Of a stretch of 64,000 nt of DNA, positions 41,186 to 61,838 are shown piece after piece. The DNA is from a virus. The first letter of the stretch is position 1. Every line of letters starts with the position of its first letter. The stretch lies in the IMG/VR virus record IMGVR_UViG_3300027714_002832. The stretch is one strand, 5' to 3'. A model generated the notes under the pieces. It searched no databases, was not told the origin of the DNA, and worked only from the letters and a program-made list of their open reading frames with translations. Made by a program: the position numbers and the translations under genes.

Positions 41186-41228
41186 TAAGCAACCCTAAAT
41201 AATAGTAAATTAACTAAGGAATATAATT

Positions 41229-41908: not shown

Positions 41909-42691
41909 TTGGCAACCACATATGAAACTGTGTTAGAAGTAATTCATTACACAGACGAATTATTTTATTTCAAAACAACACGTAATCCAGGATTCAGATT
42001 TAAAGATGGTGAATTCGTTATGATGGGTTTAGATCATTTCTCAGAAAAACTTCAAAAGAATAAACCTATATTGAGAGCATACAGTATTGCTTCTCCATCG
42101 TACGCTGAATACTTAGAATTCTATAGTATCAAAGTACAAGATGGTCCGTTAACAAGTAAATTACAGCATGTTAAAGTAGGTGACAAAATCCTAGTAGGTA
42201 CTAAACCAACTGGTACATTAGTCCCAGATAATGTCAAGCCAGGTCGTAATCTATATATGTTAAGTTCGGGCACTGGCGTAGCACCATTTATGGGGTTAGC
42301 ACGTAGTCTTGATATTTACGACAACTATGATAATGTAATATTGGTACACGGTACTAGAAAGATCGAAGATTTAGTTTGGAAAGATATGTGGTTAGGTCTT
42401 AACGAACACGAATTGTATGGTGAGTTAGTGCAGAATAAATTCCATTATTACGCAACGGTTTCTCGTGAAGAATATGAGAATGAAGGCAGAGTAACTACCG
42501 CACTATTCGATCATTCGATAGAAGACAAGTTACAGTTACCACATCTTGATTCTGAATTCGATAGAGTTATGATTTGCGGGTCTATTCCATTCAATGAGGA
42601 TTTACAAAATCATCTACTTGAAAAAGGATTCGTTGAAGGTAACATGAGTGATCCAGGCACATTCGTAGTAGAACGTGCATTCGTAGGATAA
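41909..42691 (+). CDS. ferredoxin/flavodoxin-NADP(+) reductase (Fpr-like)
   Basis: FAD-binding RAYSIASP, NAD-binding LYMLSSGTGVAPF blocks of plant-type FNR family. Confidence 0.75.
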   Translation: MATTYETVLEVIHYTDELFYFKTTRNPGFRFKDGEFVMMGLDHFSEKLQKNKPILRAYSIASPSYAEYLEFYSIKVQDGPLTSKLQHVKVGDKILVGTKPTGTLVPDNVKPGRNLYMLSSGTGVAPFMGLARSLDIYDNYDNVILVHGTRKIEDLVWKDMWLGLNEHELYGELVQNKFHYYATVSREEYENEGRVTTALFDHSIEDKLQLPHLDSEFDRVMICGSIPFNEDLQNHLLEKGFVEGNMSDPGTFVVERAFVG

Positions 42692-46661: not shown

Positions 46662-47310
46662 TAACTGGTTTAATAACCATATCTCATTAGGTGGCAGTGT
46701 TCATATAGTACATGACACTGTTTCACTTATCGGTTCGCCCAAACCATATCTAACTGATATCTATGATAGATTCTCAAAACTAACATTCGAAGATGTAGAG
46801 CATTTCATGGGCTCTCGTATCTTAGACAATTCAATGCCCAATCGTGCATTGATCGAAGATGCAACTAAGTTGTATTATCTAGAAGAACAAATCAAACAAG
46901 ACAAACTAATATTCAAACCGCAACTATTACACGAACCTTGGGCAGATAGATATCGTGTTCATCCTGGTTCGGGTCGTATCGCAGCAATGTGGAAATGTGA
47001 TCCCATAAAACCTATAGAAAGCATCTATATTCACTTCAATGAAGACATATTTACTATCCCTCAGAATAGCACCGAAGTGAGGTCCTCAGAGGCTTTCTTA
47101 GACGCAATCACGTATAAGGCGACTAATAGCATAGATTGTACAGTGGAAACAGCGTTAAAACGTACGGAACGAGACACCGAATGGAATCCAACAATAGTAA
47201 GTACCGTAAATTGGGAATTCATTCGTTATAGTGAAGGGAAATATTTCTTGGAATATAAGCAAGCATGGCGTGACTACGCACTCGACTTATGGTTACTACT
47301 TAATCGCTAG
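46627..47310 (+). CDS. hypothetical protein
   Basis: 227-aa ORF. Confidence 0.45.
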   Translation: MLSSQNNFSIINNWFNNHISLGGSVHIVHDTVSLIGSPKPYLTDIYDRFSKLTFEDVEHFMGSRILDNSMPNRALIEDATKLYYLEEQIKQDKLIFKPQLLHEPWADRYRVHPGSGRIAAMWKCDPIKPIESIYIHFNEDIFTIPQNSTEVRSSEAFLDAITYKATNSIDCTVETALKRTERDTEWNPTIVSTVNWEFIRYSEGKYFLEYKQAWRDYALDLWLLLNR

Positions 47311-48000
47311 ATTAGATCTAACCCAGTCATGCATTTCAGGCGTGTTATGCGCATTGATAACTAACCAATAACTATCTTTAGTACTTGCATTAAATAATGC
47401 ATGCTCTAATGTAGTGTTCACTGCATATAGTTGGCCCATTTCAAAATAAAGCGGCTTATCTTCTAACATAAATCTAAACCACGGATTTGTAGTATTAGAT
47501 AACGCCATTATTAATCTAAACGTATCCACATTTTCACCACGACTATCTCGATGTGGTGGGAAATAACCGCCTGGCGATACTCTCAATATATGCGTTCTAC
47601 CACATAAATGTAATATATCACCAAGTAACTCTTTCATTGAAGTGAGATCATACACAGGGGTAGTTTTATCAAAATCTTTTTCACTGTAATCTGTATTATA
47701 TTTTCTATTCCATTCATACAGACTATTCAATGCGGGACCAGATTGATTTAAACCACTTTCATTTATTACACATAGACCGTCTCGCTTAATATGTGGTTTA
47801 AATTCATTGTATTGTTCCCATTTATCGTCAAACTGTGATAGTTCTTCCATAAATCTGCTAGTATTAATACTCTTATCTAATAAGATTTGATTTCCTAAAT
47901 TAAAAATTACAGACATATAACTATTCCTTAAAAGATTTATCGCCGGGAAACAATGGTAATTGTGTACCTGGCGCACGCTTAGGTATCTTACTATCTGCAC
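47296..48000 (-). CDS. cupin / 2OG-Fe(II)-oxygenase-like protein (candidate)
   Basis: GGYFPPHRDSRGE (HxD) and downstream LEHALFN His; first gene of minus-strand island. Confidence 0.4.
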   Translation of the reverse strand: MQIVRYLSVRQVHNYHCFPAINLLRNSYMSVIFNLGNQILLDKSINTSRFMEELSQFDDKWEQYNEFKPHIKRDGLCVINESGLNQSGPALNSLYEWNRKYNTDYSEKDFDKTTPVYDLTSMKELLGDILHLCGRTHILRVSPGGYFPPHRDSRGENVDTFRLIMALSNTTNPWFRFMLEDKPLYFEMGQLYAVNTTLEHALFNASTKDSYWLVINAHNTPEMHDWVRSNLAIK

Positions 48001-49090
48001 TACTCACGCACGCATTAGTCGTACATACTGTGGGTGCATCAAATAACTTGAAACCTGTTTCTATATTTCCTAACGGCTGATCTACGCAACTATAACTACG
48101 CTTCACACTACCATCTGGTTCTCTGATAATAATACTACGATGACCAGATGAACATTCCCAGCCCTTGAATTTATTAAAACCAAATGCGTTGAATCGTTCA
48201 GCCTGATCCATGAACCAATGCTTGTTATCTTTATCCATGAACTCAACTTGAAAATGCTGAGGCACTGTTACATTCTCTTCCCAATACAACGGATCCCCAT
48301 CTTTCTTAAATGTAGGTGTCGGGCGTGTAACCAACTGAGTCTTTTTCGCTTTATCTTCTGTATAACCACGCTGTGGCATACCGTTGTGTAATCGCTCCAT
48401 CTGCTCTGCGGTGTAACCATCTACTATCTTACTAGCAGTAGGATCAGACATAGGCTTTAATGTACAGTTGATTCCCTGATTATGAAAGAATAACGCATTA
48501 TCCCAATCTCGCTCAAACCATTCTGGAACCATCACTTGATTGATAGTTACTTGTACATCATGTTCTTGACAGAATATTAACTTATCAGCAAAGACTTGCA
48601 TCTTTTCTCTAGTGTCTAAATGCTCTGTGTGCAAACTTGCTGTAATACTTGCTCTATGAAATGGTGCGACATTCTTAACATAAGTCTCAAACCACTTCAT
48701 GGGACGTGACATATTAGTTGTCATGTGAACTGATGTGTAATTAGTGTTATCTACATCATCTGCAAGGTGTTTCATTATATCCAAATATCCCGGATGGAAT
48801 GTTGGTTCACCCCCGCTTAAACTAAAGTGAAAACTATTGAAACCATTGTCTCGTGCTTGACGCTTAATCTCGTCAACTGTACGTAAACATAACTCAGTAG
48901 GTCTAAAGTCTTTCTTATCACTACGAGCGTAAGGCCAGCAGTAACTACAACGATAGTTACAATAGCGTCCCAGTAACCAACTAATACTGAATAAATCGCG
49001 ATGAAGCATTGTGCGTTGCCCTACTCTTACTAAATCATCAAATGGTATTTTAGTAAAATCGTATGTACTGTATTTTAAATCTTCGCTCAT
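47921..49090 (-). CDS. radical SAM enzyme with C-terminal twitch/SPASM-like Cys region
   Basis: CNYRCSYC (Cx3Cx2C); C-terminal WECSSGHRS...SYSCVD...CTTNAC; start set at MSEDLKY (49090) 1 nt after upstream stop; ORF-track start is 49138. Confidence 0.75.
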   Translation of the reverse strand: MSEDLKYSTYDFTKIPFDDLVRVGQRTMLHRDLFSISWLLGRYCNYRCSYCWPYARSDKKDFRPTELCLRTVDEIKRQARDNGFNSFHFSLSGGEPTFHPGYLDIMKHLADDVDNTNYTSVHMTTNMSRPMKWFETYVKNVAPFHRASITASLHTEHLDTREKMQVFADKLIFCQEHDVQVTINQVMVPEWFERDWDNALFFHNQGINCTLKPMSDPTASKIVDGYTAEQMERLHNGMPQRGYTEDKAKKTQLVTRPTPTFKKDGDPLYWEENVTVPQHFQVEFMDKDNKHWFMDQAERFNAFGFNKFKGWECSSGHRSIIIREPDGSVKRSYSCVDQPLGNIETGFKLFDAPTVCTTNACVSSADSKIPKRAPGTQLPLFPGDKSFKE

Positions 49091-49091
49091 T

Positions 49092-49529
49092 TTAGATGCA
49101 CCATGAAATCTTTTTATCGCCATAATATTCTCTAGCAAAGCCTTCTGCTATGAGCATGTGTCTTAAACTCTTGCCATCTATAATGATATCACCAAGTACT
49201 CGACCACCATACTTGTCCCATTTATAAATGGCTACTTGTATAACCGTTGCTGCATTTAACATATCTTTAGTAAACTGTGACGCTTCTTCACCCCATGCTG
49301 CTTCTTTAGGACATTCTGCTCTCCAACTTTTTTCTGGAGTATCTACACCATATACACGAATACTTAATTCCTGCTTCAATGGTGCTGGTAAAAAGGTAGC
49401 TTCAAATGCAACGGTGTCGCCATCAATCACTCTTGTAATATTATAATCGTAGATGGTCATCTCTACTTCTTTTGCCATTGCTGGCATTGTTGATAGTATT
49501 GCAATTAATAAAATTATAATCGTTCTCAT
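49092..49529 (-). CDS. secreted staphylococcal-nuclease (SNase)-like nuclease
   Basis: signal peptide MRTIIILLIAILSTMPAMA; VIDGDTVAF...RVYGVDTPE SNase catalytic blocks. Confidence 0.6.
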   Translation of the reverse strand: MRTIIILLIAILSTMPAMAKEVEMTIYDYNITRVIDGDTVAFEATFLPAPLKQELSIRVYGVDTPEKSWRAECPKEAAWGEEASQFTKDMLNAATVIQVAIYKWDKYGGRVLGDIIIDGKSLRHMLIAEGFAREYYGDKKISWCI

Positions 49530-50464
49530 GCTGTCTCTCCGTTAATGTAGTATTTATTATAAAGTATATCGTATGCGTCTACGACCTGTTTGTAACGCCT
49601 ACCATATATCTGTGCTGCTTCTTTTAATATATCACTGTTACTTACACCTAAGTAATCAAGTATAACATCTGTATTTTTAAACCATTCAACGTCTACTACT
49701 AAATGATCAATTTTATCTTCTTCTATATAGGATAATGACTCATTTTGAACAAACACATCTTCGTAATCGTGTTTTTCTTCAAATAGCCTATGGAACGAAT
49801 ACTCAAATTCAAAAATACCATCACCAGTGTTATCGTCTATGTGACTTAGCGATTTCTTCAAATCCCAATGTGCAAAATTTAATTGCCACATATATTTCAA
49901 CTTACCATCGTGAAAATCCTCTATACATTTGTCGTGATAATCTCTATACCAAACTTCTTTCCATTTGCCAATAATATCTCCGTCCATTAGCATGTGATCT
50001 TCCCACCACAACTGCGTTTGTTCAATTATCTCATCTTCTGTTAATTCAATAAATGCATATTGCGTTATATAGAACATTGCACTTTGTTCGGTTGTGACTT
50101 GGGTGAATATGAGTTTGTCAGCAATTGGTGCGAACCTTGAATCATATGTAGCACCGAAATAATTACTCCACACTTTATATTGAAAATCTTCATTAAATTT
50201 AAAATATTCGGAAAGGCAATCAATCCCACCATCTGTTTCTGTTTTATTTTCCATCATTCTAAGCGTTTCTTGATGACTATAATATAAATCTTGATCAATA
50301 AGATGGGTATATCGGTTCTCTTCAACTATGGTTCCAATTGCTAGTCGTTCAGGTGTTGGCTTTAATCCAGAATAGATTTGAGGACCAAATCTATGATCTT
50401 GTGCAAGCCACCAATGAATCGCAGGTGCATGTGCATTTACTACTTGATATATTCCGATGTTCAT
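49526..50464 (-). CDS. hypothetical protein
   Basis: 312 aa, acidic, Trp/Tyr-rich, no motif recognised. Confidence 0.5.
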   Translation of the reverse strand: MNIGIYQVVNAHAPAIHWWLAQDHRFGPQIYSGLKPTPERLAIGTIVEENRYTHLIDQDLYYSHQETLRMMENKTETDGGIDCLSEYFKFNEDFQYKVWSNYFGATYDSRFAPIADKLIFTQVTTEQSAMFYITQYAFIELTEDEIIEQTQLWWEDHMLMDGDIIGKWKEVWYRDYHDKCIEDFHDGKLKYMWQLNFAHWDLKKSLSHIDDNTGDGIFEFEYSFHRLFEEKHDYEDVFVQNESLSYIEEDKIDHLVVDVEWFKNTDVILDYLGVSNSDILKEAAQIYGRRYKQVVDAYDILYNKYYINGETA

Positions 50465-50580
50465 AGTGCAAGGTAATTAGGCATAGCCATGATAGGCGAT
50501 GATGTTAAAATTATAGCCAATGTGACTGTCGCCACTTTAGCCAATAGCACTACTGCTTGCTTAATATATATTTTCATAAT
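50461..50580 (-). CDS. small hydrophobic peptide (39 aa)
   Basis: MKIYIKQAVVLLAKVATVTLAIILTSSPIMAMPNYLAL; below ORF-track cutoff. Confidence 0.25.
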   Translation of the reverse strand: MMKIYIKQAVVLLAKVATVTLAIILTSSPIMAMPNYLAL

Positions 50581-50586
50581 TATTCC

Positions 50587-51237
50587 TTAATTTTTTGAAC
50601 GGTTAATCCATTCTTCATCTGTCACCTGTATAGGATCAATACTTAATTCATTCAATGACAAATGTTCAGGCAATATCATCGCATATTCAATACAATCAAC
50701 CGCTTCTTCAAATGTCATCAACTTGCGTCCTGGATGCTTGTCTGCGTTATTCGGCAATGTACCAAACGTAACATAACTCACCTTTGGGCCACCTTGCCAG
50801 ATACTTTTCAATCCCATAGCGTTACTCGCACTACGTAATGCTTTCTTCTCTTGTTGATATGTCCAATCCGACCCTTTTGTTGCCCTGTCCGTGGTGGACC
50901 CGACAGACACTATATGTAGGGATTTCCGGGCACTCTGTGCGGTTTTATATACTACATCTAGTAGCAGTGCCTGATGGTACTGCCATAGTGCACTACAGTT
51001 AATAAAAATGTCGTATTCTAGTGCTTTATTTGCAACAGTTTTTTTCACATGATTCAATGTTAGATCATGGTCACTGATGCTTTGACTAATAAAATCTGTC
51101 TGTGGATATCGTTTTAATATCTCACTCGCTAGACCAATCTCTGGATTACCTGTACATAATATTTTCTTATTAGTTAAATCAATCACTTTACTTTCCTTTT
51201 TACTACTGGACGCAACGTCCATATTTCTTTTGTACAT
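50587..51237 (-). CDS. short-chain dehydrogenase/reductase-like NAD(P)-binding protein
   Basis: ILCTGNPEIGLA Rossmann turn, INCSAL (NNAG-like), YQQEK (YxxxK). Confidence 0.45.
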   Translation of the reverse strand: MYKRNMDVASSSKKESKVIDLTNKKILCTGNPEIGLASEILKRYPQTDFISQSISDHDLTLNHVKKTVANKALEYDIFINCSALWQYHQALLLDVVYKTAQSARKSLHIVSVGSTTDRATKGSDWTYQQEKKALRSASNAMGLKSIWQGGPKVSYVTFGTLPNNADKHPGRKLMTFEEAVDCIEYAMILPEHLSLNELSIDPIQVTDEEWINRSKN

Positions 51238-51288
51238 CGGTGTGGCATATCGTCAACGTAGGTACCACAATATGGGCATAGAATCTGA

Positions 51289-52551
51289 TTAGTTATTGTC
51301 ATTGATTTGTCCTTTAAATTCTGGACATGATTCTACTAACGTACCACGTTGCAATTCATCCATCTTCAAATTATAATCAATAAATTCTTGCCAGTGTTCA
51401 GCATGTGTATTCCCAGCATTTAAATACTTAATCACATCGTCTACCTTAGGCCATGCTTTATGACTTTTTAAATTATACAATGCCAACGTCTTTAAATGAT
51501 GTGGCAATACTTGTATATTCATACTACGCGGATGGTTTAATATATTGAAATATAACTGATCATGTTCTAATCCACGTGATTCCGCAAACTCGATAACCTC
51601 GTGTAGTGCACATACATTCAATGCTTGTACCGTACAATGAATCTGAATATATACATTATCCAATTTAGATAATTCATCAAAATTCTTTTCTACTATATGC
51701 CAATGACTAGGGTAACGAATATATCTGTCACGCGCACCAATTGCATCAATTGAGCAATTTAATTGTACACGCTTGAAATGTGACCAATATTCGATCATCT
51801 TCGGTGGCACATTAGTTAGGTTGGTGTTGTACTTTAAACGAATGCCCGATGCAAGATCATTTTCAATACAATAGTCTAACAACTTATATTGACTAACTGC
51901 CAATGTAGGCTCACCACCAGTTAAATAAATTTCTTCAACCGTATGAGCAATTTCAGTGAATGTAATACCTGTCTTTTCCCAATCTGGCCATTCAGTCATG
52001 GTATTCATGAATTCTAATGTGTCTTCATCCAATTTCTTTGGTGGATCTAAATATGCTGCATCAACTACTTTATTCCAATCTTTAACCCACATGCTACTTG
52101 CCCACGGATTACACATGCGACATTTTAGGTTACATAAGTTACCCAAACGTAAGTCAACATATTTCACATCAACTGGAATTTCAACATCTATCTTCACATC
52201 TTCTTTCAGCCACTTTTCATTAAATCCTGCTCGCGCACTACGAATGCCAGCATCTTCTTCTCTGAAACAACGCGCACACATATCTGGTCGCTCACCATCG
52301 ATGAACTGTTTTCTGATAGTTGTATAGGTTGGGCTATTCCATACTTCATCTAAATCATGCTTGTAGATTTTATATGGCTTGCCATTCTCTTGTAATATTG
52401 TGTTCTCACCGGGCGTGCTATTACAGCATACTCGATAAGATCCCGCAGCATTAGTTGCTACGTGCATAAAGGGTAAAACACAGAACGTGTCACTTACTTT
52501 TTTTGTCATTTGTTTAAATCCATTTTGTATAATCTTTGCCATCACTATCAT
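51289..52551 (-). CDS. radical SAM enzyme with N-terminal twitch-like Cys motif
   Basis: N-term CVLPFMHVATNAAGSYRVCCNS ... CARCF then CNLKCRMC (Cx3Cx2C). Confidence 0.8.
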   Translation of the reverse strand: MIVMAKIIQNGFKQMTKKVSDTFCVLPFMHVATNAAGSYRVCCNSTPGENTILQENGKPYKIYKHDLDEVWNSPTYTTIRKQFIDGERPDMCARCFREEDAGIRSARAGFNEKWLKEDVKIDVEIPVDVKYVDLRLGNLCNLKCRMCNPWASSMWVKDWNKVVDAAYLDPPKKLDEDTLEFMNTMTEWPDWEKTGITFTEIAHTVEEIYLTGGEPTLAVSQYKLLDYCIENDLASGIRLKYNTNLTNVPPKMIEYWSHFKRVQLNCSIDAIGARDRYIRYPSHWHIVEKNFDELSKLDNVYIQIHCTVQALNVCALHEVIEFAESRGLEHDQLYFNILNHPRSMNIQVLPHHLKTLALYNLKSHKAWPKVDDVIKYLNAGNTHAEHWQEFIDYNLKMDELQRGTLVESCPEFKGQINDNN

Positions 52552-53446
52552 CTAGTATCATTACATGATCAATCAATTGTTGTTTATTATCTTGATCATC
52601 CAATGCACCCGGAGCCATGTATGCGGGACTAATCAAATCACTCGCTCTATTGAAGTGAATATCGTGACTTGTCGCCCAATCATTCACTTCGTGAATGTTA
52701 TTAATATTTAGTACACTTGGTAAACACGTAATACATATACTCGTATTATCAGGTGAACTCTTGTGTATGTCAATGATATTATTACTTACTTGTTCCCAGT
52801 TTGCTCCTCGTCTAAGGTATTCAAAACGCTCACCTATGGCATCTACACTTGCAACTATTATAACACGTTTAAACGATTCGAACAAGGGATAATATGCATT
52901 AATATCTATTGTTCCATTAGTAATGAATTGTAATTCAATCGTAGATGAAACGTCTGCATCGATCAGATATTTAATTATCTTCTTTACTTGTGGTATCATG
53001 AATGGTTCACCACCTGTAAATTTAAGAATCTTTGCAAAATGCAATTGTGGGTATATCTGCTCAATATCTTTGTGCCAACCTGTATTTGCTTTGCGCTTAC
53101 CAGTTTTTACTGCCCACGAACTTGAACTATAACTATCACATGAGACGCACGTGAGATTACACGTGTTGTTAATCTTTAAGTCCCATTGCTCTGTGCCAAT
53201 GCTATCTGCTAGTACATCATTCATATACATTCGATAACTCTTACCATTTGATTCTTCATCTTGTTGGCACTCTATGCATTCAGGCAACCAACCTCGCAAT
53301 GACTCAACATAGTATTTGTTGTGCAACGATTCCCAATCATCGGTAATTGCAACACCAGATGATGCCGCATTCCAAGCACAGCATGGTCTAACTTCGCCTG
53401 TTACGCCTATCGTTACTGCATGTTTAAACGCCAAGCATTTTGGCAT
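52514..53446 (-). CDS. radical SAM enzyme with N-terminal twitch-like Cys motif
   Basis: N-term CLAFKHAVTIGVTGEVRPCCAW ... CIEC then CNLTCVSC. Confidence 0.8.
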   Translation of the reverse strand: MPKCLAFKHAVTIGVTGEVRPCCAWNAASSGVAITDDWESLHNKYYVESLRGWLPECIECQQDEESNGKSYRMYMNDVLADSIGTEQWDLKINNTCNLTCVSCDSYSSSSWAVKTGKRKANTGWHKDIEQIYPQLHFAKILKFTGGEPFMIPQVKKIIKYLIDADVSSTIELQFITNGTIDINAYYPLFESFKRVIIVASVDAIGERFEYLRRGANWEQVSNNIIDIHKSSPDNTSICITCLPSVLNINNIHEVNDWATSHDIHFNRASDLISPAYMAPGALDDQDNKQQLIDHVMILDDSDGKDYTKWI

Positions 53447-54179
53447 AGCCGCGATTCACCTGTTGTTTAAATTCATCACTAGGACCACCATCAAAGATCA
53501 TATGTATCCTTGGTTCTTCACTTTTATTCCATACAGAATGCTTATATCCTGTATTCAATTTCATCACTGAACCTGCTTCAAATGGAACAATACCCATACC
53601 TTCAAATACGAATTCGCATCCATCTGGATTGTTTAATGCTACATTAGTTGCACCTACTCCAACTGGATTAGGTCTATCGTTGTGAATGCCCAACCAACCA
53701 TCTGGTAACAGTGCCATGAACCTTACACGAGCAAACTGGTTGTACAACATTTCATCTTGCATCCATTGTACTGTTTTAGGGCAAAATTTAGCAATATCAG
53801 TCCAGTCACTATGGGTTTCTTCATAATCATCTGGTAAGTTATAATCTTCTGCACAATTAGTATGTACACTGCTTATTCCATGAATCGACAAACTCAACCA
53901 CCCCGAACTACAAGGACGGTGTGCAGTAAAGCATGACGTATATAACAAATGATTTGCTTCTTCAAACAAATCCTTGTGTGGTACATTAATTTCTGGTATC
54001 GATATATATGGAAAACGGGTATTGTCCATGATGTAATCAACATCGTGCTCACTTTCTTCTAAAAAATTCCCTGCATCTAATATTTTAAAATCAGGTTTAA
54101 TAATTCTATTTTCTTCATGCCATATAATTGATTCATCATCAATTTCTTCCCTATCTAAAGGTGATCCTTCAAACCACAT
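53424..54179 (-). CDS. aspartyl/asparaginyl beta-hydroxylase-like cupin oxygenase (candidate)
   Basis: WLGIHNDRPNP (HxD) and YKHSVWN (distal His) in a beta-rich C-terminal half. Confidence 0.45.
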   Translation of the reverse strand: MWFEGSPLDREEIDDESIIWHEENRIIKPDFKILDAGNFLEESEHDVDYIMDNTRFPYISIPEINVPHKDLFEEANHLLYTSCFTAHRPCSSGWLSLSIHGISSVHTNCAEDYNLPDDYEETHSDWTDIAKFCPKTVQWMQDEMLYNQFARVRFMALLPDGWLGIHNDRPNPVGVGATNVALNNPDGCEFVFEGMGIVPFEAGSVMKLNTGYKHSVWNKSEEPRIHMIFDGGPSDEFKQQVNRGYAKMLGV

Positions 54180-54189
54180 AATTTATCTC

Positions 54190-55749
54190 CTATTGTTCAA
54201 ATGTTAATGTTTCATTATTGGTTGTACTTATAATAGCCCTTGATGGACATGTTAAGTCGTTATCGTTTATATCAGTGCCCGAAAACCAACAATCATCATG
54301 CAATTCATTTAATTTAGTTATTAAACTAATGAAACTCAATTCCATTGCAAACGGTTTACTAAGCATCTTTGGCACAATATAACTATAGATATTAGATGTC
54401 CACATCAATGTTCTTTTATTTTCTACTGCTTCAAATAATTTATCATGTCCATATATTAAATCACATTCAATTACTTCCCAGTTGCTCTGTCTGATTCTAT
54501 CCCATACTGATAACCAATTAGTATCTCCATCAAATTGCTGTATTACGTTAGGCCATCTCTCAACAGTCAAGTCTCTTAAATTTCCATTTGCATCTGGATG
54601 CTGTTCAATCCATGCATCGACAAACTCAGGATAGTTTATACCATTCCATTGTTCTAGCATATCTCGTTTAAATTTACAACTCAATGGATCAAAATCATAT
54701 AACACAAATTTCGTGTCTTTTGTAAAACCATACTTGTATGCATAGTAGAATAATTTAAAGCCCGCAGTGGCACCGACATATTGATCAAATACCGTTCCTT
54801 CAATTTGTTCTGCAATACCAGGCTGACTAGATTCTGTATTTACAAAATATATAGGACTATCTGGTGCGAACATCTCTCTTATCATTCGATTTGCTTGAAA
54901 TGTTAGTTTATCACTGTCAAACGGTAAACCTTGTATAGCCTTCTCAAATTCAATTGAACCAACATGCGGCTTCATCGTGGCTAAACAATTCATAAAATCT
55001 GCACTCAATCCTGGGACAATTAGTTCTTGTCGCAATGACCATGTCAATAACGGATTGCACAATTTATGATGGTATTGTTCATTAAATTCTTCGTGTGTTA
55101 TCCACGGATTCCATGTAGCATGTTTGATATTTAATCGTGCAGCGCCTAGTTTTACAATACCAAATAAACTATCCTCAAAATCTTCAACTATTCCTTGTTT
55201 TCTAGTAACCCAATTGTCACTTGGCTTTTCATGTCGTGTACCTTGACGAGAATACCGATCTGCGGGATCTTGATTGTATAATACATCAGCGGGATCTTGT
55301 GCACCTTGCTCATACCACGTATCTAAATTAATCAGTATGATGTTTCTTTCAAAATGAGAATATCTTTCATCATCGGTTTGTAATATATTTCCTGCAACTA
55401 TCCATTTAGTGATATCAAATTCTTCATTAATACGATTTATTTCATCAAGTAATTTTAAGTTAACATCATCAGATGCTGACCAAGTGCCGTCAAACCACAT
55501 ACATACATAACGATATCCTAATTTGCGCATAGCGATCATCCAACTAATTTCGGATTGTCCTACAATGTTAACTATGCCTCCACGAAGATGATTATTATGT
55601 TCTACCTCTGCTATTTCACGTAACTTTTGCTTTAATATAGGTGTGTCACTTAATTCAATACTATCAGTGTTATTTGAATTGAATGCGTGAACTATTGGCC
55701 ATGAATTTTCTCCATGATAATAATTCCACAGACTCTGTCCTTTCTTCAT
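54190..55749 (-). CDS. large hypothetical protein (possible Rossmann/methyltransferase-like segment)
   Basis: 519 aa; Gly-rich YVGATAGFKLFYYAYKYG followed by acidic LYDFDPL, weak. Confidence 0.5.
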   Translation of the reverse strand: MKKGQSLWNYYHGENSWPIVHAFNSNNTDSIELSDTPILKQKLREIAEVEHNNHLRGGIVNIVGQSEISWMIAMRKLGYRYVCMWFDGTWSASDDVNLKLLDEINRINEEFDITKWIVAGNILQTDDERYSHFERNIILINLDTWYEQGAQDPADVLYNQDPADRYSRQGTRHEKPSDNWVTRKQGIVEDFEDSLFGIVKLGAARLNIKHATWNPWITHEEFNEQYHHKLCNPLLTWSLRQELIVPGLSADFMNCLATMKPHVGSIEFEKAIQGLPFDSDKLTFQANRMIREMFAPDSPIYFVNTESSQPGIAEQIEGTVFDQYVGATAGFKLFYYAYKYGFTKDTKFVLYDFDPLSCKFKRDMLEQWNGINYPEFVDAWIEQHPDANGNLRDLTVERWPNVIQQFDGDTNWLSVWDRIRQSNWEVIECDLIYGHDKLFEAVENKRTLMWTSNIYSYIVPKMLSKPFAMELSFISLITKLNELHDDCWFSGTDINDNDLTCPSRAIISTTNNETLTFEQ

Positions 55750-55758
55750 TTTTCGTCC

Positions 55759-56985
55759 TTATATATCATTATTGATGTCTATTAAAAAATCAGTAAGTGG
55801 CATATCAAGATATTGTTCTATCATCTCACTTAATTTAATCTTAGGATTGTATCTATTTTCTAAATCACGTGTGTACTTACGCATCTTAGTATATTGTATA
55901 TAATCTCGTTGATTATTTTCCATATAAGTAGCAAATGTATCCATCTCTGGATGTTCTTTTTCATGCTTTCGTAATTTATTAATAATAGCCGATCTATAAG
56001 GCTCAGGCCATATCGCTGGGCTTAGTATCTTTGGTGTATGTAATATGTTAGCAGTAATGAATGTCAATTCAATGTCACTCTGCTTCCAGTATTCATAAAA
56101 TTCTGGCATCTGAAATATATTATGTGCTTGTATAGTAATACCCAATGCTAAGTCTATATGCTCTATGTCATTCAATACACTCAGATTAGATTCTACTGTA
56201 CTCCAATCACCACCTTCACGAATGTAATCATAAACATCATTGACACCATCAAGTGATACTTTGATATTAACATGCTTGAATTGACTCCAAATTTCTAGCA
56301 AATTATATTTTTTAAATGTTAGATGACTCAGATTAGTAGCATATCGCAATTTGATCGTAGATCGTAGATGCTCTGGTATCGATTCAAGTAAGTCGTAATG
56401 CTCTTGATTAATGATAGGTTCGCCACCAGTGAATTGTAATACTTTAACTGTATCCCAGAACCCATCCCATTTGCCTATGCTATCAAACAACGTAGTTGGT
56501 CGTAGGAGACGTGTTTCGTGATGCTCTGTACCCATATACTTCTCAATGATGTCTAAGTCCTGTACGCGCTTGTACGAACTATGTGTACTACACATAATAC
56601 ATTTCAAATTACAGAAGTTAGAAACCTTCAACTCTATCCACAATGGTGGATTATCTACAGAGTAATCATCATTGAGTTTGATCAAGTCTTTATAATTATC
56701 CCAATCATCGTCAAACCATTGCTGTCTATTTGATACAACACCACTTGCTTCATTATGCCAACATACATCACACTCTGATGGTATCTCATTGCTAGTGAGT
56801 GCCCTACGAAGTTCTTTGTAGTTGTCATTATTCCATGTGTCTTCAATAGCAGCACCCGGCTCATTGAAAATCTTAGTTTGTGCTTCACAGCAAGGTACTA
56901 TATCGCCGCCCGCTGAACCGTACGTATGCATGAATGGTATCATACAAAATGATGTTGTTTTGGCTAGTTCATTAATATCTTTCAT
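55759..56985 (-). CDS. radical SAM enzyme with N-terminal twitch-like Cys motif
   Basis: N-term CMIPFMHTYGSAGGDIVPCCEA ... CDVC then CNLKCIMC. Confidence 0.8.
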   Translation of the reverse strand: MKDINELAKTTSFCMIPFMHTYGSAGGDIVPCCEAQTKIFNEPGAAIEDTWNNDNYKELRRALTSNEIPSECDVCWHNEASGVVSNRQQWFDDDWDNYKDLIKLNDDYSVDNPPLWIELKVSNFCNLKCIMCSTHSSYKRVQDLDIIEKYMGTEHHETRLLRPTTLFDSIGKWDGFWDTVKVLQFTGGEPIINQEHYDLLESIPEHLRSTIKLRYATNLSHLTFKKYNLLEIWSQFKHVNIKVSLDGVNDVYDYIREGGDWSTVESNLSVLNDIEHIDLALGITIQAHNIFQMPEFYEYWKQSDIELTFITANILHTPKILSPAIWPEPYRSAIINKLRKHEKEHPEMDTFATYMENNQRDYIQYTKMRKYTRDLENRYNPKIKLSEMIEQYLDMPLTDFLIDINNDI

Positions 56986-58105
56986 TTAATAATTTCTTAT
57001 ATCCTTGTATATATTCTTCTGCATCATTATTACGTAAATCAAACAATTCGTACATTTGATCTAAATAAATTTTACTATTATCTTCTGCGTTATTTGTTTT
57101 ACACAATGAAATTAATAATGTATATGCTTTCTTTAATTTCCAGTGACAGTCTTTATATTGCTCTTCTACTATCAATCTCAAATTATTCTTGAATGTATCT
57201 GTCTGATGTGCGATACTCAACCAGTCTGGCTCATGTATAGTTTGCAACATTACCTGCACACCTATCTCAAATCTTGCCCATCTCATTAGATCTATTAACA
57301 CTGGTGCATTTAATACACCAACTGTGCAAGCGACAAATACTTCTACCTTGTCGTATTTAGTTCCCAATTCTGTCCATTGCTTCAGTACAGATTCAATAGC
57401 AGGGAATTTGGATGGGTGACGTAATATATCGTTTAATTCGCCAACTGCATCTATACTATTCGTAATTCGCAAGTTATTGAATTCTAATAGATAATCTAAG
57501 TTCATCTTCGCTGGCCAGTATGTGCAATTCGTAAATATCTCAATATCGATCTGAGGTGCAATACCACTATCTACCAATCGTTTAATGAATCGTAAAAACT
57601 GCTTATGCATGAACGGCTCACCACCTGTCACTTTCATATATTTCAAATGAGATAGTTGATCCATGGATAGTGCATCTAAATCATATTCTCTATTCTTTGC
57701 AAAATGTTCTAATACTTCAACCATCACTAAATCAATCGCTAGTGCGTCTTTATCCCATGTATGACTATACTCAGGTCCGCAACCAACACATGCAAGATTA
57801 CATAGATTGCCCACTGTAATCTCTAGATATTCTAATTGGATTGAATCTGTGAAATCATCAAAGAATTCGTCTGCTTCTGTTCGCATACTAGTAAGACCAG
57901 TATCTTCATCGGCTTTGCATTTCCAGCAACCCTCATGCCATTCGTTCCTTAACATCGTCTCGCGAATATCTTTAAACACATACTTGTTATCATCATCAGA
58001 TAAGTAACGATCATGAAATTTACAACATGGTGTAGCGGGAGTACCGTTTGCAAGCATTGCTGCTTTGAACGGATATGCACAAGCGTTACTCGGCAAATTT
58101 GCCAT
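56972..58105 (-). CDS. radical SAM enzyme with N-terminal twitch-like Cys motif
   Basis: N-term CAYPFKAAMLANGTPATPCCKF ... CWKC then CNLACVGC. Confidence 0.8.
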   Translation of the reverse strand: MANLPSNACAYPFKAAMLANGTPATPCCKFHDRYLSDDDNKYVFKDIRETMLRNEWHEGCWKCKADEDTGLTSMRTEADEFFDDFTDSIQLEYLEITVGNLCNLACVGCGPEYSHTWDKDALAIDLVMVEVLEHFAKNREYDLDALSMDQLSHLKYMKVTGGEPFMHKQFLRFIKRLVDSGIAPQIDIEIFTNCTYWPAKMNLDYLLEFNNLRITNSIDAVGELNDILRHPSKFPAIESVLKQWTELGTKYDKVEVFVACTVGVLNAPVLIDLMRWARFEIGVQVMLQTIHEPDWLSIAHQTDTFKNNLRLIVEEQYKDCHWKLKKAYTLLISLCKTNNAEDNSKIYLDQMYELFDLRNNDAEEYIQGYKKLLNERY

Positions 58106-59003
58106 TATTTTTATACCTCTTTAGTGCTTTCGCTAAGTTGATGCGATTGTATGCGCGATCACGATGGAACATATCCCATTCTGGTGTATCAGGTGCTTGG
58201 GCAATATGTATCGTATTAGTCTCTTGCAATCCATAATGTTCACATACAATTTTATGTGCTTCTCTATATTTGTTAGGCATAGTATCTGGGCTGAACTTTT
58301 TCATTAACGCATTAGACAATGCTACATTCAAATGAATACCGTGATTCCATTCTGTCTGCACTCGCATACCACAACGCTCTTCATCTAAACGACTGAACAC
58401 AATACCAGCACGCCAGTTACCACCACTTAATCCTTTACCAGTGCTGAATGCAACCATCTTAATACAATCATGTGACAAATCAACATCAATATCAAAACAA
58501 GTTCCAAACCATGCACAATCTACCAGAATAGGAATATTCTTTGCTGTACACTCTTCAATCAACCAATCCCATCGCTCGTGCTTGCGTCCGTTACCACTGA
58601 ATGGAATACTAACGATAACCGCATCACCTACGGATAACCCAGTATCGTCAATGCTATCTGACCAATTCATTTCTGGTCCCAACCATACATCACGGTTATA
58701 CGGATATTCACCACGGAACACCTTTAAGTTCTGTCCAGTAGCGATGCACCAATACTGCCACCATTCTAATGCTTGTGTAGTACCTAAACTAACATAACGA
58801 TCAGGATATGTATCTAACCCAGTAAAGTTATTTAATTTGCTGCTTTGTATCCATTTGGGATATAATTCTAAGAATTCTGCTGGGGCTGTACCAACTCCTG
58901 CTAAATTCATATTTGGCAATACTTCATCTTGTATATAGTCAATAAATGGTTGATTCCAAATACTGTTGCCTGTCTTACCAAAATCGGGGTTGTTACTCAT
59001 CAT
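58086..59003 (-). CDS. truncated PLP-dependent aminotransferase-like protein
   Basis: AFSTGKGLSGGNWRAGIVFS resembles fold-type-I aminotransferase SxSKxxGxxGxRxG block; only 305 aa. Confidence 0.4.
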   Translation of the reverse strand: MMSNNPDFGKTGNSIWNQPFIDYIQDEVLPNMNLAGVGTAPAEFLELYPKWIQSSKLNNFTGLDTYPDRYVSLGTTQALEWWQYWCIATGQNLKVFRGEYPYNRDVWLGPEMNWSDSIDDTGLSVGDAVIVSIPFSGNGRKHERWDWLIEECTAKNIPILVDCAWFGTCFDIDVDLSHDCIKMVAFSTGKGLSGGNWRAGIVFSRLDEERCGMRVQTEWNHGIHLNVALSNALMKKFSPDTMPNKYREAHKIVCEHYGLQETNTIHIAQAPDTPEWDMFHRDRAYNRINLAKALKRYKNNGKFAE

Positions 59004-59263
59004 GTATTCCTTGTTAGTCCTAGTGCTATTGCATTATCAAATGTAATAGGATGTGCGCTTACAACGAGCATAAAGAAATCTCTCGCTTCATCGTAATCAT
59101 TAAATATAGATTCAAATACTATTTCACTTGTTGTACCACTAAGTGTAACACTATATTTGTCTGTAATTGTTTCATCCGAATATGTGAGTATAACTAAATC
59201 GTTATTAGCACCCATATTGTCTTTGAAGTCTTCTGTCGTTTTTATATATTGTCGTTTTATCAT
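59000..59263 (-). CDS. hypothetical small protein
   Basis: 87-aa ORF, ATGA overlap. Confidence 0.4.
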   Translation of the reverse strand: MIKRQYIKTTEDFKDNMGANNDLVILTYSDETITDKYSVTLSGTTSEIVFESIFNDYDEARDFFMLVVSAHPITFDNAIALGLTRNT

Positions 59264-59514
59264 TATAAATATGCCATCTTTAATAAAAATATTTCTTCAT
59301 CTGGTAGGTCAACTAGAGTAACCCATTCATTGAATGTATAATTAATTCCATCAATCCACCATGCAGCGTGACCATCAGGCCATATAACCGCAGGTCCAAT
59401 CTCATTATGCCATATACACTCATCGTCGTATATGTAGCCGCAATATTCTCTATGATGTACGATCACGATACCATCGGTTGTTACTACAAATGTGCAAGTT
59501 GCACTATCTGACAT
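59263..59514 (-). CDS. hypothetical small protein, WHxxDGPA/FKMA family
   Basis: WHNEIGPAVIWPDGHAAWWIDGINYTFNEW and C-term DEEIFLLKMAYL; paralogue of 31473-31865. Confidence 0.45.
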   Translation of the reverse strand: MSDSATCTFVVTTDGIVIVHHREYCGYIYDDECIWHNEIGPAVIWPDGHAAWWIDGINYTFNEWVTLVDLPDEEIFLLKMAYL

Positions 59515-60754
59515 AACTCTCGATTTCTGGTATATACTGCAATGTGTCTGTTTTTCGTAATCTATCTAAATCGTCAGTGTACCTTAGAAACCAATTCCAT
59601 TGCTTATCAGATTCTTGATCATCTTCGTTTGAAAACATTAACCCATTACGAATGGATTCAATACCTGTCTGATATCCACCTTCATCTGAGTTTGCACTAG
59701 TAAGTGGCCACATTTCTAAATTAGGGATATGCTTTATTTTATCATACGCCAATGCTTTCAACTCTTCTGGCATATTTCCTATATTCAAATAGCCAGGATG
59801 AACTACCACGTTACTCATCGAAATACTTGCACGATGCGCATGATGGGTAGCAAACCATTCCCAGACTTTATCTAAATTAAATATATTGGTAATCATTACC
59901 GTAACAGCAAACACTACCTCTACATTTGGGATATCGTAGAATTTTTCTATGTTCTCGTTCAATTGATCCCATGTGTAACTAGGACCGCCACGAATAATAC
60001 TATATAATTCATCAGTTGCTTCTACACTAATTAATAATTCTACATGCTTAAAGTGACTGAATAATTCTCTAAATTCTTCTTTGAATACGGTTGCATTTGT
60101 ACTGATGTCTAATGATACGCTACTTGCAATACCATTGTCTACAAACCATTGCAATACTGATAAACAGATTTCATCATACAACGGCTCACCACCACGCAGT
60201 GCCACCCATTGCAGATTGCGAAAATACTCTGGATTCTTAAATAGATTATCCATGAAGTCTATACTTGCACCATGATAACCTATTGGCTGTTTACTCCAAT
60301 ATTCTGGCTTTTCTCTATTAAGAGATTTACCATCTTTAGTCCAGCCTGTACTTACGAACGGATCACAATGAATACATGCTAGATTACATTTATTACTAAG
60401 AGTAAAATCAAGATACCTAATATCAGGAACAGAATCTACTGTAAGATCTTTACTCGCAACCTTTGTTTCATGATCAATTCTATCCCAGAAATATAAACGA
60501 CGACTGCGCCCAACTTTCTCTTTCTTCACGCAACCCTGACATGATTCTGGAATCTCACGCTTACGATGTGATTCTCTCAATTCAGTGTATGCATCTCCCT
60601 CTAGTATTTCACGCAATGATTGCTTACCAATATTACCTAATTTACCTTTATAGATAATGTCTGGGATGACGTTACCACCCCATTTAACAGTTAATGCGTG
60701 CCAAGGTGCTAAACAGGTAGGTAGATCTTTTCTATTTACGAATGTGTTTTTCAT
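59504..60754 (-). CDS. radical SAM enzyme with N-terminal Cys-rich region
   Basis: N-term CLAPWH...CQGC then CNLACIHC (Cx3Cx2C). Confidence 0.8.
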   Translation of the reverse strand: MKNTFVNRKDLPTCLAPWHALTVKWGGNVIPDIIYKGKLGNIGKQSLREILEGDAYTELRESHRKREIPESCQGCVKKEKVGRSRRLYFWDRIDHETKVASKDLTVDSVPDIRYLDFTLSNKCNLACIHCDPFVSTGWTKDGKSLNREKPEYWSKQPIGYHGASIDFMDNLFKNPEYFRNLQWVALRGGEPLYDEICLSVLQWFVDNGIASSVSLDISTNATVFKEEFRELFSHFKHVELLISVEATDELYSIIRGGPSYTWDQLNENIEKFYDIPNVEVVFAVTVMITNIFNLDKVWEWFATHHAHRASISMSNVVVHPGYLNIGNMPEELKALAYDKIKHIPNLEMWPLTSANSDEGGYQTGIESIRNGLMFSNEDDQESDKQWNWFLRYTDDLDRLRKTDTLQYIPEIESYVR

Positions 60755-61519
60755 TTAATTTATAGAACCTATGTTACGCCTGTTTATTTCCTTTAATTTT
60801 TCATAAGATATACGTGCTGCTGTTTCTATGTTAATCTCACAATCATCTAATACAGTATTATACGTTAATTTTTTATAAACGTCATATGTACTATTATAAT
60901 ACTCAAACAGCAAATTATAGTCAGCGCCAATCTTTGCGGCTTCATACAAAGTTTCTACAGCATCTATTACTAGGCATTCACCTATGTATTGTGAATCGTG
61001 AATTTGACCAAGAATGCAATCATCCCAATCAATAATAATCCAATCACCAATATCAAACTGCAATATATTACTACGTCCGCCGTCAACATTACAATAAGGA
61101 AATATCTTCAGATTTGTTTCTATATATTTTGGAAATACGTGTTTATTATACATATCCATATCGTTGTATATTGAGGATAATGGGTTAGAGTCATTCTCCA
61201 ACCAAGATAAATTTTTGTCTAATTCAAACCCGTAAGGAACTCTTGTCATTTTATACTTAATAAAAGAATTTGAGTTTGACTCATTACCATTCCAAGAATA
61301 ATCTAGTCTTTCAATAATTTCCCAATCATCATGTATTAGTTTTTTAGGGTGTAATGAATTTATTAGATCAATTTGTCCTTGAATACATTCTTCACCAATA
61401 GCTGCAGGTATTATTTTTACAATAAAATTACCATCGTCATATGCCCACCTTGGCATATGACATGATCTCTCATTAGGATCACCGGGTTCGAACTTATCTG
61501 GCATTAATTTCTTATACAT
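60755..61519 (-). CDS. hypothetical protein, possible APH/choline-kinase-like fold
   Basis: 254 aa; NVDGGRSNILQFD and IIDWDDCILGQ loosely resemble kinase catalytic and DFG-like loops. Confidence 0.35.
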   Translation of the reverse strand: MYKKLMPDKFEPGDPNERSCHMPRWAYDDGNFIVKIIPAAIGEECIQGQIDLINSLHPKKLIHDDWEIIERLDYSWNGNESNSNSFIKYKMTRVPYGFELDKNLSWLENDSNPLSSIYNDMDMYNKHVFPKYIETNLKIFPYCNVDGGRSNILQFDIGDWIIIDWDDCILGQIHDSQYIGECLVIDAVETLYEAAKIGADYNLLFEYYNSTYDVYKKLTYNTVLDDCEINIETAARISYEKLKEINRRNIGSIN

Positions 61520-61521
61520 TA

Positions 61522-61752
61522 TTAAAACAGTTCTCTTAATAATTTCTCTTCTGCTTTCTTCTTTGTACGACGATTTACGTCTGCTGCTGCAATTTCTCGC
61601 TGCATGTAATCTTCAAACATATTTTTCAGTTCATTCTCTTCTAAATTCACAATCTGTGATTTAATTGAAGATAACACTTTTGTTACACTCATATCTGTAC
61701 TTTTATTAATCTCATCTTGGATGATATTTGTTACTACGTCTGCATTAATCAT
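61522..61752 (-). CDS. hypothetical small protein
   Basis: 76 aa, first gene downstream of candidate minus-strand promoter. Confidence 0.4.
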   Translation of the reverse strand: MINADVVTNIIQDEINKSTDMSVTKVLSSIKSQIVNLEENELKNMFEDYMQREIAAADVNRRTKKKAEEKLLRELF

Positions 61753-61807
61753 GGTAATCCCCTATAAGTTTTATATATGTATATGTATGTATTATAACAT
61801 TGATACT

Positions 61808-61838
61808 ATTATATACTATGTTTATATGTTCTGTCAAG
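61808..61838 (-). promoter_or_regulatory. candidate sigma70-like promoter for minus-strand island
   Basis: minus-strand TTGACA (61838-61833), 16-18 nt, TATATAAT (about 61815-61808). Confidence 0.4.

Follow-up and report, generated by a model that had tools for sequence, protein, structure and literature searches.

Phages carrying many radical S-adenosylmethionine (rSAM) genes have been described before. The genomes of the Campylobacter phages CP220 and CPt10 contain 11-12 rSAM genes each, and an interchangeable module of 10-12 genes in these phages includes five rSAM genes and a putative amidinotransferase gene (Timms et al., 2010; PMC2853527). In the cyanophage S-SCSM2R, a cluster labelled "antibiotic synthesis genes" encodes a pyridoxal phosphate (PLP) enzyme, an rSAM enzyme, and an inosamine amidinotransferase (PMC12801897), and the host-recognition clusters of pelagimyophages contain rSAM cassettes that vary between relatives (PMC7029224). 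Here we analyze a 64,000-nucleotide stretch of viral DNA (IMG/VR record IMGVR_UViG_3300027714_002832; hereafter, the window) that contains eight rSAM genes, six of them in a minus-strand island of 17 open reading frames (ORFs) of 76-519 amino acids (aa) at positions 47296-61752, and two that encode enzymes with a C-terminal SPASM domain. Phage modules that are rich in rSAM genes and linked to an amidinotransferase are an already known, unexplained kind of locus; we found no functional study of such modules, of jumbo-phage rSAM enzymes, of Bdellovibrio rSAM paralogs, or of phage Isc genes in the literature. What is new is a battery of five N-twitch rSAM paralogs, a layout split into two modules, the assignment of a 519-aa protein as glycosyltransferase (GT-A)- and methyltransferase-like from a structural model, and homologous clusters in Bdellovibrionota. 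We tentatively favor the reading, to which we give somewhat less than an even chance, that the island makes up the larger part of a conserved multi-enzyme tailoring pathway carried by phages. Such a pathway would use a soluble substrate of low molecular weight, derived from a sugar, a cyclitol, or an amino acid and not a ribosomal peptide, and would lead to a glycoconjugate or a guanidino product.

The window resembles CP220 in that five or more rSAM genes occur together with an AGAT-family amidinotransferase and GT-A-fold proteins in both. The CP220 locus also encodes two proteins with the nucleotide-diphospho-sugar-transferase fold and a PAP2 phosphatase, and the CP220 amidinotransferase (gp086) is 27% identical to that of the window (14988-16052, plus strand). 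However, the CP220 rSAM enzymes belong to the C-terminal-SPASM family of the window proteins encoded from 1309 and 16049 (E 1e-17 for 1309), while the N-twitch paralogs match them marginally. The CP220 module also lacks a PLP enzyme, an AspH-family hydroxylase, a short-chain dehydrogenase/reductase (SDR), and the 519-aa protein, and its host and phage lineage differ. The amidinotransferase of S-SCSM2R, a marine myovirus, matches the window protein in part (34% identity over 38% of the query), but the cluster has only three genes, encodes a PLP enzyme of the AHBA_syn/DegT type, and lacks the N-twitch paralog set. Four clustered N-twitch-like rSAM genes are present in Vibrio jumbo phage K566. 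An original prediction, made by a model from the letters of the window, took this number of rSAM genes to be without precedent in phages, which is contradicted by the 11-12 genes of CP220 and CPt10 and the four clustered genes of K566. In the Ralstonia phage RsoM2USA neighborhood, all products are annotated "hypothetical protein".

All six island rSAM genes named in that prediction are genuine. Five reached or exceeded the PF04055 gathering score of 29.5 bits; the sixth, at 59504, scored 26.4 bits against PF04055 but 255 bits against the N_Twi_rSAM model NF033640. Five ORFs passed the curated NF033640 cut-off of 170 bits and span the full length of the model: rSAM-A (59504-60754; 255 bits, with a SPASM match of 41.6 bits), rSAM-B (56972-58105; 224 bits), rSAM-C (55759-56985; 313 bits), the short rSAM-D (52514-53446; 186 bits), and rSAM-E (51289-52551; 375 bits), the top family match. 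These five deeply diverged paralogs, encoded in one operon, are 21-27% identical to each other. The sixth enzyme, rSAM-F (47921-49138; PF04055, 50 bits), scored 42.7 bits against NF033640 and lies outside the family; it is an rSAM enzyme of another type with a C-terminal Cys-rich segment. None of the six belonged to a well-characterized housekeeping family of the QueE, NrdG, or RlmN type, the outcome that the original prediction had named as telling against it, and five fall in a single uncharacterized family. Identities as viperin, QueE, MoaA, or NrdG were also considered and rejected, as no match exceeded 59 bits, compared with cut-offs of 131-650 bits. A literature search on the family name, which is merely descriptive, returned no characterized member of NF033640.

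The N-terminal ~75 residues of the five paralogs (profile positions 3-76) match the C-terminal twitch domain of BtrN (residues 158-236, E 2e-9), and PF13186 (SPASM) matches at residues 14-95. Since the N terminus matches a domain that is C-terminal in BtrN, the five paralogs are permuted twitch enzymes. For the rSAM core, the top matches in the PDB were SkfB, MoaA, and BlsE. In the five paralogs, C140, C144, and C147 are invariant within the motif CNLxCxxC, as is the motif GGEP. Profile searches of the PDB with rSAM-F and with the SPASM-type rSAM family returned nothing specific. An exhaustive profile search recovered 6,559 clusters (50% identity) at E ≤ 1e-30, and many top hits to the five-paralog profile (P0357-P0383) were tandem N-twitch/N-twitch fusions of ~800 aa with two full rSAM units. 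Such fusions fit a scenario in which the paralogs act jointly.

We observed one departure from the family pattern. In the rSAM-A line, the Cys-Cys pair of the twitch domain is replaced by a Pro-Asp that is conserved in phage and Bdellovibrionota sequences (59504-60754 in the window; L091:5192-6469; L015:4267-5514; L018:3024-4223; L038:16850-18100). Because Pro-Asp replaces Cys-Cys, the auxiliary cluster of rSAM-A may be ligated by three Cys residues together with Asp, or may keep a site open.

Conservation across contigs separated the island genes into two groups. Every core gene has its own orthologue, at 41-78% protein identity and in the same order, in L004 (a Tara contig of 137 kb), L008 (174 kb), and L091 (a 322-kb contig deposited at NCBI as a "bacterium" metagenome-assembled genome [MAG]). 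The order kept is rSAM-A, PLP enzyme, rSAM-B, rSAM-C, GT-A/methyltransferase-like protein (plus a paralog), AspH-family hydroxylase, rSAM-D, rSAM-E, SDR, and rSAM-F. Orthologues of rSAM-A are 63% identical in L091, 69% in L008, and 32-36% in Bdellovibrionota; those of rSAM-B are 45-54% identical, with unchanged position, in L004, L008, and L091; those of rSAM-C are 64% identical in the same three contigs and 36% in Bdellovibrionota; and those of rSAM-D are 41-51% identical in the relatives, with two copies in L004. For rSAM-E we recovered 2,757 homologues at E ≤ 1e-10, many of them 60-76% identical and on contigs of 100-249 kb; identity to the Bdellovibrionota copies was 30-46%. A tblastn search of plasmids with rSAM-E gave no match, and an exact protein look-up gave no record. 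Conservation of rSAM-F was strong, at 78% in L008, 73% in L091, and 73-75% in L011 and L012, and a tblastn search of cultured phages gave no match to it. The other six of the 17 ORFs, encoding the nuclease-like protein and the 312-, 254-, 87-, 83-, and 76-aa proteins described below, are restricted to near-identical contigs. Since these six occur only there, 11 of the 17 genes make up a conserved system and six are insertions, so that the single pathway of 18 genes in the original prediction shrinks to an 11-gene core.

Homologous clusters also exist in cells. We scanned one genome per species with two peptide motifs taken from the rSAM-E orthologue alignment and obtained 80 loci, almost all in Bdellovibrionota MAGs (Bdellovibrionales, Pseudobdellovibrionaceae, Bacteriovoracaceae, Halobacteriovoraceae, and Oligoflexia), often several per genome and including loci on Mb-scale contigs. 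One Pseudobdellovibrionaceae locus encodes 11 rSAM enzymes within 20 kb and also contains genes for the PLP enzyme, the amidinotransferase, an AspH fusion, and a protein related to the 519-aa one. Clear orthologues in Bdellovibrionota exist for subfamilies A, C, E, and F, which implies that the paralogs diverged before the phage and cellular copies separated; rSAM-F was present in 36 of the scanned loci, with the closest copies 56-62% identical. We then clustered the proteins of 84 loci (the 80 from the scan and a few from phages), which contain 300 rSAM enzymes of these families. Companion families were a SPASM-type rSAM enzyme (23 loci), the PLP enzyme (18), two GT2 glycosyltransferase families (13 and 9), HTTM-domain membrane proteins (9), the SDR (9), the AspH-family protein (9), a NodU/TobZ-type carbamoyltransferase (8), and the amidinotransferase (6). 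In L013, a GT1 glycosyltransferase co-occurs. A truncated class-II aminoacyl-tRNA synthetase-like protein (PF00152) was seen in eight scanned loci and in phage contig L004 (L004:16388-17218; L063:3012-4238), and is absent from the window.

Each paralog forms a separate orthologous line in constant order, and A, C, E, and F have counterparts in Bdellovibrionota as well, which indicates distinct and ancient roles for the paralogs; their separate lines fit a shared multi-step pathway. These data bear on an alternative in which there is no single pathway but a hypervariable region of independent rSAM cassettes, each acting on host metabolism, similar to the low-oxygen suggestion made for Campylobacter phages. 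In keeping with that idea, rSAM cassettes differ between related pelagimyophages (PMC7029224), the CP220 and CPt10 modules are interchangeable (PMC2853527), six of the window's 17 ORFs are lineage-specific, and relatives gain or duplicate rSAM genes. A collection of independent cassettes is nevertheless hard to reconcile with a core order that is constant across contigs at 41-78% protein identity, with the joint occurrence of the same families in Bdellovibrionota, with gene overlaps that suggest translational coupling, and with the natural N-twitch/N-twitch fusion proteins. We consider it very improbable.

The enzymes encoded between the rSAM genes, all on the minus strand, cover several further classes. 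Of the two AspH/cupin-like oxygenase candidates in the original prediction, the one at 53424-54179 is an AspH-family (PF05118) Fe/2-oxoglutarate-type hydroxylase (44.2 bits), with orthologues that are 58-63% identical in the relatives and 32-38% in Bdellovibrionota loci. The other, a divergent AspH/cupin-like protein at 47296-47916, matched PF05118 at 19.6 bits, under the cut-off of 22.6 bits; translation probably begins at the ATG at 47916, for a protein of 206 aa, and it has homologues in L050, L025, and L011 and is linked to the AspH cluster of related loci. The SDR-like reductase called at 50587 held up as a classical SDR of 216 aa (50587-51237), as its profile matched farnesol dehydrogenase (3e-10) and many other SDRs in the PDB. 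Tyr127 and Lys131 are invariant, with YxxxK spacing, and orthologues in the relatives are 59-63% identical. The aminotransferase-like protein (58086-59003, 305 aa) was confirmed as a short PLP enzyme of fold type I resembling class I/II aminotransferases: its AlphaFold2 model (AF2; mean predicted local distance difference test [pLDDT] 94.3) matched Plu4, MppP, GntC, and aspartate and aromatic aminotransferases in a Foldseek search of the PDB (E 1e-10 to 1e-8), Lys190 and Asp162 are invariant, and PF00155 is found on some homologues. It is kept beside rSAM genes in 18 clustered loci, 15 of them from the genome scan.

The 519-aa protein (54190-55749), one of three large proteins left as unknown in the original prediction, has no Pfam domain, and a PDB profile search with its family returned nothing specific. 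It models as two domains, a GT-A glycosyltransferase-like N terminus and a class-I SAM-methyltransferase-like C terminus (pLDDT 86.8). Four uncharacterized phage proteins in BFVD align with it over nearly the full length, three of them at TM scores of 0.55-0.63; the next BFVD neighbors are viral GT25 and Fringe-like glycosyltransferases, and PBCV-1 A64R and mimivirus R699 are among its structural neighbors. PBCV-1 A064R is a multi-domain capsid-glycan glycosyltransferase that also has a methyltransferase domain. Yet sequence similarity between the two proteins is undetectable, and A064R is not associated with rSAM enzymes. Since the core enzymes all lack hydrophobic segments, their substrate is likely to be cytoplasmic.

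Families that adjoin N-twitch rSAM genes elsewhere mapped to a second region of the window, on the plus strand at 12-17 kb. A protein with tandem repeats and a C-terminal methyltransferase-like domain, whose fold is suggested by motifs, is encoded at 12144-13394; its C-terminal 235 aa share 48% identity with a family that recurs in eight rSAM loci, and its orthologue adjoins the core in L091. Six copies of a 69-bp tandem repeat (12242-12671) encode 23-aa repeats (…DLRKAVIEQNLHSIFRLLP…) in its N terminus. It is followed by a 292-aa protein (14099-14977) that lacks a family match and has a 63% orthologue inside the L091 cluster, by the amidinotransferase (14988-16052), and by an rSAM enzyme with a C-terminal SPASM domain (16049-17083; PF04055 and PF13186) whose family occurs in 23 rSAM loci. 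A SPASM-type paralog of the latter (28% identity) is encoded at 1309-2334, also on the plus strand. The amidinotransferase belongs to the AGAT/StrB1 family, as its profile matched StrB1 (1bwd; 2e-41), HsvA (6e-41), SxtG (4e-39), and AGAT (1e-34) in the PDB. Its orthologues are 82% identical beside rSAM-A in L091 and 39-47% identical in Bdellovibrionota clusters. In the window it lies ~31 kb from the island, and in L091 it is contiguous with the core. Since the L091 orthologues of the second module lie directly upstream of rSAM-A, the system is split into two modules in this phage, and the island is not a self-contained unit. Immediately after the second module comes a PTPS/QueD-like gene (17565-18011; PF01242, 58 bits); QueC, QueE, and FolE were not found among the scanned window ORFs.

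The iron-sulfur (Fe-S) assembly and reductant genes that the original prediction had listed were recovered in domain scans, all on the plus strand. IscS, IscU, and an FNR-like reductase are encoded at 39926-42691 (Aminotran_5, 283 bits; NifU_N, 182 bits; NAD_binding_1, 42 bits), a ferredoxin at 18268-18633 (Fer4/DUF3470), and IscA at 19504-19905 (Fe-S_biosyn). We infer that these proteins supply the rSAM enzymes. An APRT-like gene (18947-19468; Pribosyltran) lies between the ferredoxin and IscA genes.

A pathway that accommodates these enzymes, with chemistry inferred from their classes, would proceed as follows. Loading and reduction of the Fe-S clusters would fall to IscS, IscU, IscA, ferredoxin, and the FNR-like reductase. 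rSAM-A to rSAM-E and rSAM-F would each abstract hydrogen at a different unactivated carbon, resulting in oxidation, epimerization, dehydration, or C-C bond formation, comparable to the action of BtrN on an aminocyclitol. The SDR and the two AspH-type hydroxylases would tune the oxidation state, the PLP enzyme would add or relocate an amino group, and the StrB1-like amidinotransferase of the second module would convert an amine to a guanidine. The GT-A/methyltransferase-like protein might then join the product to an acceptor, or attach a sugar, followed by methylation. The product could be destined for a virion protein glycan, a host envelope glycan, or a diffusible metabolite.

Several observations favor such a small-molecule or glycan pathway: the BtrN-like twitch domain, the StrB1-like amidinotransferase, the viral glycan-enzyme neighbors of the 519-aa protein, the co-occurrence of GT2, GT1, and carbamoyltransferase genes, and the GT-A-fold proteins of CP220. 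BtrN is the 2-deoxy-scyllo-inosamine dehydrogenase of butirosin synthesis, and its twitch domain matches that of the paralogs, in which it is N-terminal, a permutation relative to BtrN. StrB1 is the inosamine-phosphate amidinotransferase of streptomycin synthesis, and among solved structures it is the closest relative of the window's amidinotransferase (E 2e-41). A PLP enzyme, an SDR, and glycosyltransferase-like proteins in the window, and carbamoyltransferases in the genome-scan clusters, further recall aminoglycoside pathways. The resemblance to the BtrN and StrB1 pathways is one of enzyme classes, not of orthology.

Other observations weigh against this reading. Enzymes for nucleotide-sugar, inositol, or 2-deoxy-scyllo-inosose synthesis were not found in the island or the annotated neighborhoods, and neither 2-deoxy-scyllo-inosose synthase nor inositol-phosphate synthase was found in these or in the second module. 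The fold of the PLP enzyme places it among the class I/II amino-acid aminotransferases; it resembles alpha-amino-acid aminotransferases and the arginine-modifying PLP enzymes Plu4, MppP, and GntC and is not of the DegT type; no DegT/BtrS-type sugar aminotransferase was found. The GT-A-like domain of the 519-aa protein lacks a clear DxD motif. Most characterized SPASM/twitch enzymes modify peptides, and the sactisynthase SkfB is the top PDB match of the rSAM core. In addition, rSAM chemistry is not predictable from sequence, and the taxonomic picture given by the genome scan is biased, since two peptide patterns were used.

An alternative is that the enzymes modify a peptide or protein, either a product resembling a ribosomally synthesized and post-translationally modified peptide (RiPP) or a phage structural or host protein. 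In that case the twitch rSAM enzymes would crosslink, epimerize, or methylate the chain, AspH would hydroxylate Asp or Asn, the GT-A protein would glycosylate it, and the amidinotransferase would convert Lys or Orn side chains. Proteins are known substrates of AspH-family hydroxylases and of the glycosyltransferases Fringe, GT25, and LH3. Consistent with this alternative are the SPASM/twitch matches, the position of SkfB as top core match, many weak matches to NCBIfam RiPP maturases, the GT25/Fringe-type protein glycosyltransferases among the structural neighbors of the 519-aa protein, and the HTTM-domain proteins in nine genome-scan loci. Virions of S-SCSM2R contained the amidinotransferase and a prolyl-hydroxylase-like protein (PMC12801897).

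The search for a precursor peptide counts against this alternative. Three small ORFs, of 76 aa (61522-61752), 83 aa (59263-59514), and 87 aa (59000-59263), all on the minus strand, had been proposed as substrates or precursors. The 76-aa ORF has no family match and has homologues only in the near-identical contigs L001-L003, and none of the three has a homologue in L004, L008, L091, or the genome-scan loci. Since all three are lineage-specific, we see no conserved precursor peptide among them; the 83- and 87-aa ORFs look like filler, and the former belongs to a repeated family. Nor did we find any conserved small ORF near the rSAM genes in the phage or genome-scan loci, or an RiPP recognition element (RRE)/PqqD domain, leader peptidase, or ABC exporter among the island ORFs (Pfam, NCBIfam). 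The auxiliary Fe-S (SPASM/twitch) domain on the island rSAM enzymes is a feature not confined to RiPP enzymes. The substrate may be encoded elsewhere, for example as a structural protein, and we regard peptide or protein modification as unlikely overall, though the strongest of the alternatives. Of the two branches offered in the original prediction, the RiPP branch therefore fared poorly, as precursor, RRE, protease, and exporter were all missing, and the other, multi-step C-H chemistry with a glycan or small molecule as substrate, is better supported.

Three small-protein families deserve mention. The 83-aa ORF is 34% identical (E 5e-5) to a 130-aa ORF 28 kb away (31473-31865); the motif W..G.A.I…WW.DG…DEEIF.KMA is common to their C termini, and they constitute a small repeated gene family in this phage. 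A ~72-aa protein (…NKQAHHNSQNWY…YGDLPSKxGPGKD…) is conserved in relatives (L011:114-335, L012:3678-3902, L055:6494-6715, L058:5171-5386, and L098:788-1006); in L012, L055, and L058 its gene immediately follows the methyltransferase-like gene. It was considered as a carrier or precursor and rejected, as it is absent from the window. A hydrophobic ~50-aa ORF (L021:14623-14772) occurs in nine loci and adjoins the carbamoyltransferase gene in L021, L022, L030, and L031; it looks like a membrane partner, not a precursor.

We also weighed whether the enzymes hypermodify DNA or a nucleotide precursor as a defense against restriction, with rSAM, PLP, glycosyltransferase, and methyltransferase activities decorating a base. 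In phages, rSAM and PLP enzymes take part in thymidine hypermodification, and in Campylobacter phages with similar rSAM/amidinotransferase modules guanine is fully substituted. The PTPS/QueD-like gene after the second module, the DNA ligase gene upstream of the island, and the nuclease gene in the operon are compatible with such a role. However, the nuclease is lineage-specific, and no hydroxymethylase, DpdA/TGT, 5-hydroxymethyluracil kinase, QueC, or QueE was detected among the scanned window ORFs. Moreover, in Bdellovibrionota the clusters are chromosomal and lie beside genes for GT2, carbamoyltransferase, and membrane HTTM proteins, neighbors that make the cellular context unlike that of DNA modification. 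DNA hypermodification thus seems improbable, more so than modification of a peptide or protein.

Returning to a tailoring pathway for a small molecule or glycan, the cellular clusters allow a broader and more speculative proposal, which we regard as possible but doubtful: that marine jumbo phages and predatory Bdellovibrionota share a previously unrecognized biosynthetic system, in which batteries of N-twitch rSAM enzymes (as many as 11 within 20 kb) produce heavily C-H-functionalized, guanidinylated glycoconjugates or metabolites of a new class, which the phage would deploy in infection. Its use could be virion decoration, remodeling of the host envelope, or action as a toxin. If true, this would be the first insight into the chemistry of a family comprising more than 6,500 sequence clusters. 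As rSAM enzymes carry out otherwise hard chemistry, a family for which we found no characterized member is a large blind spot, and here five of its members are kept together with a sixth rSAM enzyme and accessory enzymes in an abundant clade of marine jumbo phages. The compact operon, which could be expressed, offers a route to substrate and product. A single answer could explain the phage island, the Bdellovibrionota clusters, and the 15-year-old CP220/CPt10 modules, and would reveal what a costly pathway gives a virus.

The architecture of the island is that of an operon. As the original prediction had it, the minus-strand ORFs are co-directional and tightly packed, although we count 17 in place of 18; junctions are overlaps of 1-47 nucleotides (nt) or gaps of 0-122 nt, and the overlaps suggest translational coupling. 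The predicted promoter also stood: a candidate sigma-70-type site (TTGACA-18-TATAAT, 61837-61808 on the minus strand) matches the consensus at 12 of 12 positions and lies in the 90-nt gap between the stop of the DNA ligase gene at 61843 and the first ORF (61752). It is the sole 12/12 match within 46.5-63.5 kb, a span of 17 kb. Promoter-like sites as a group show no enrichment (68 observed versus 86 expected). We saw no convincing minus-strand terminator within the island. A change in the sign of the GC skew at ~47 kb coincides with the strand switch at the end of the plus-strand block, and the upstream neighbor is the DNA ligase gene (61843-62844, minus strand; phrog_114).

Among the inserted minus-strand genes, the secreted nuclease reported in the original prediction was confirmed as an SNase-like protein (49092-49529; PF00565, E 3e-13; phrog_452); it alone among the island proteins has an N-terminal hydrophobic segment, and it is absent from related loci. 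The 312-aa (49526-50464) and 254-aa (60755-61519) proteins, listed as unknown, remain without a family match, the latter in Pfam, PHROG, and NCBIfam, and both are absent from related loci. For the lineage-specific ORFs, Pfam matches at E ≤ 1 were noise only. A kinase-like identity for the 254-aa protein, considered because of an IIDWDD motif, had no support in Pfam or NCBIfam scans.

The window comes from an uncultured marine jumbo phage that brings its own genes for Fe-S assembly and reductant supply. It is represented by three near-identical IMG/VR contigs, the longest of 117 kb, and a nucleotide search with the island against 50,697 phage records gave no match. The clamp loader is closest (53%) to that of Pseudomonas jumbo phage PA5oct, followed by Phosso, XacN1, and Atu_ph07. 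Versions of the cluster close to that of the window are found in L011 (assigned to a Crocinitomicaceae MAG), L012 (Gammaproteobacteria MED685), and L091, and L055 (Rickettsiales MED657) shares several cluster families. These four could be jumbo-phage contigs that were mis-binned, and L091 could represent the near-complete genome of a relative.

Elsewhere, the window encodes ClpP, ClpX, IF3, and ClpS (4131-4745, 8851-10080, 10070-10576, and 10932-11240), and a second ClpP-like ORF (23539-24219) was recognized by eye. Three tRNA genes (Ala, Ala, and Thr) lie at 919-1230 and a phosphoribosyl pyrophosphate synthase gene at 32128-33099. In the regions 28866-29930 and 26142-27205, an inner-membrane transporter of the SbmA/BacA family (270 bits) is also encoded, and small membrane ORFs near its gene appear, by eye, to be MotA/ExbB- and ExbD-like.

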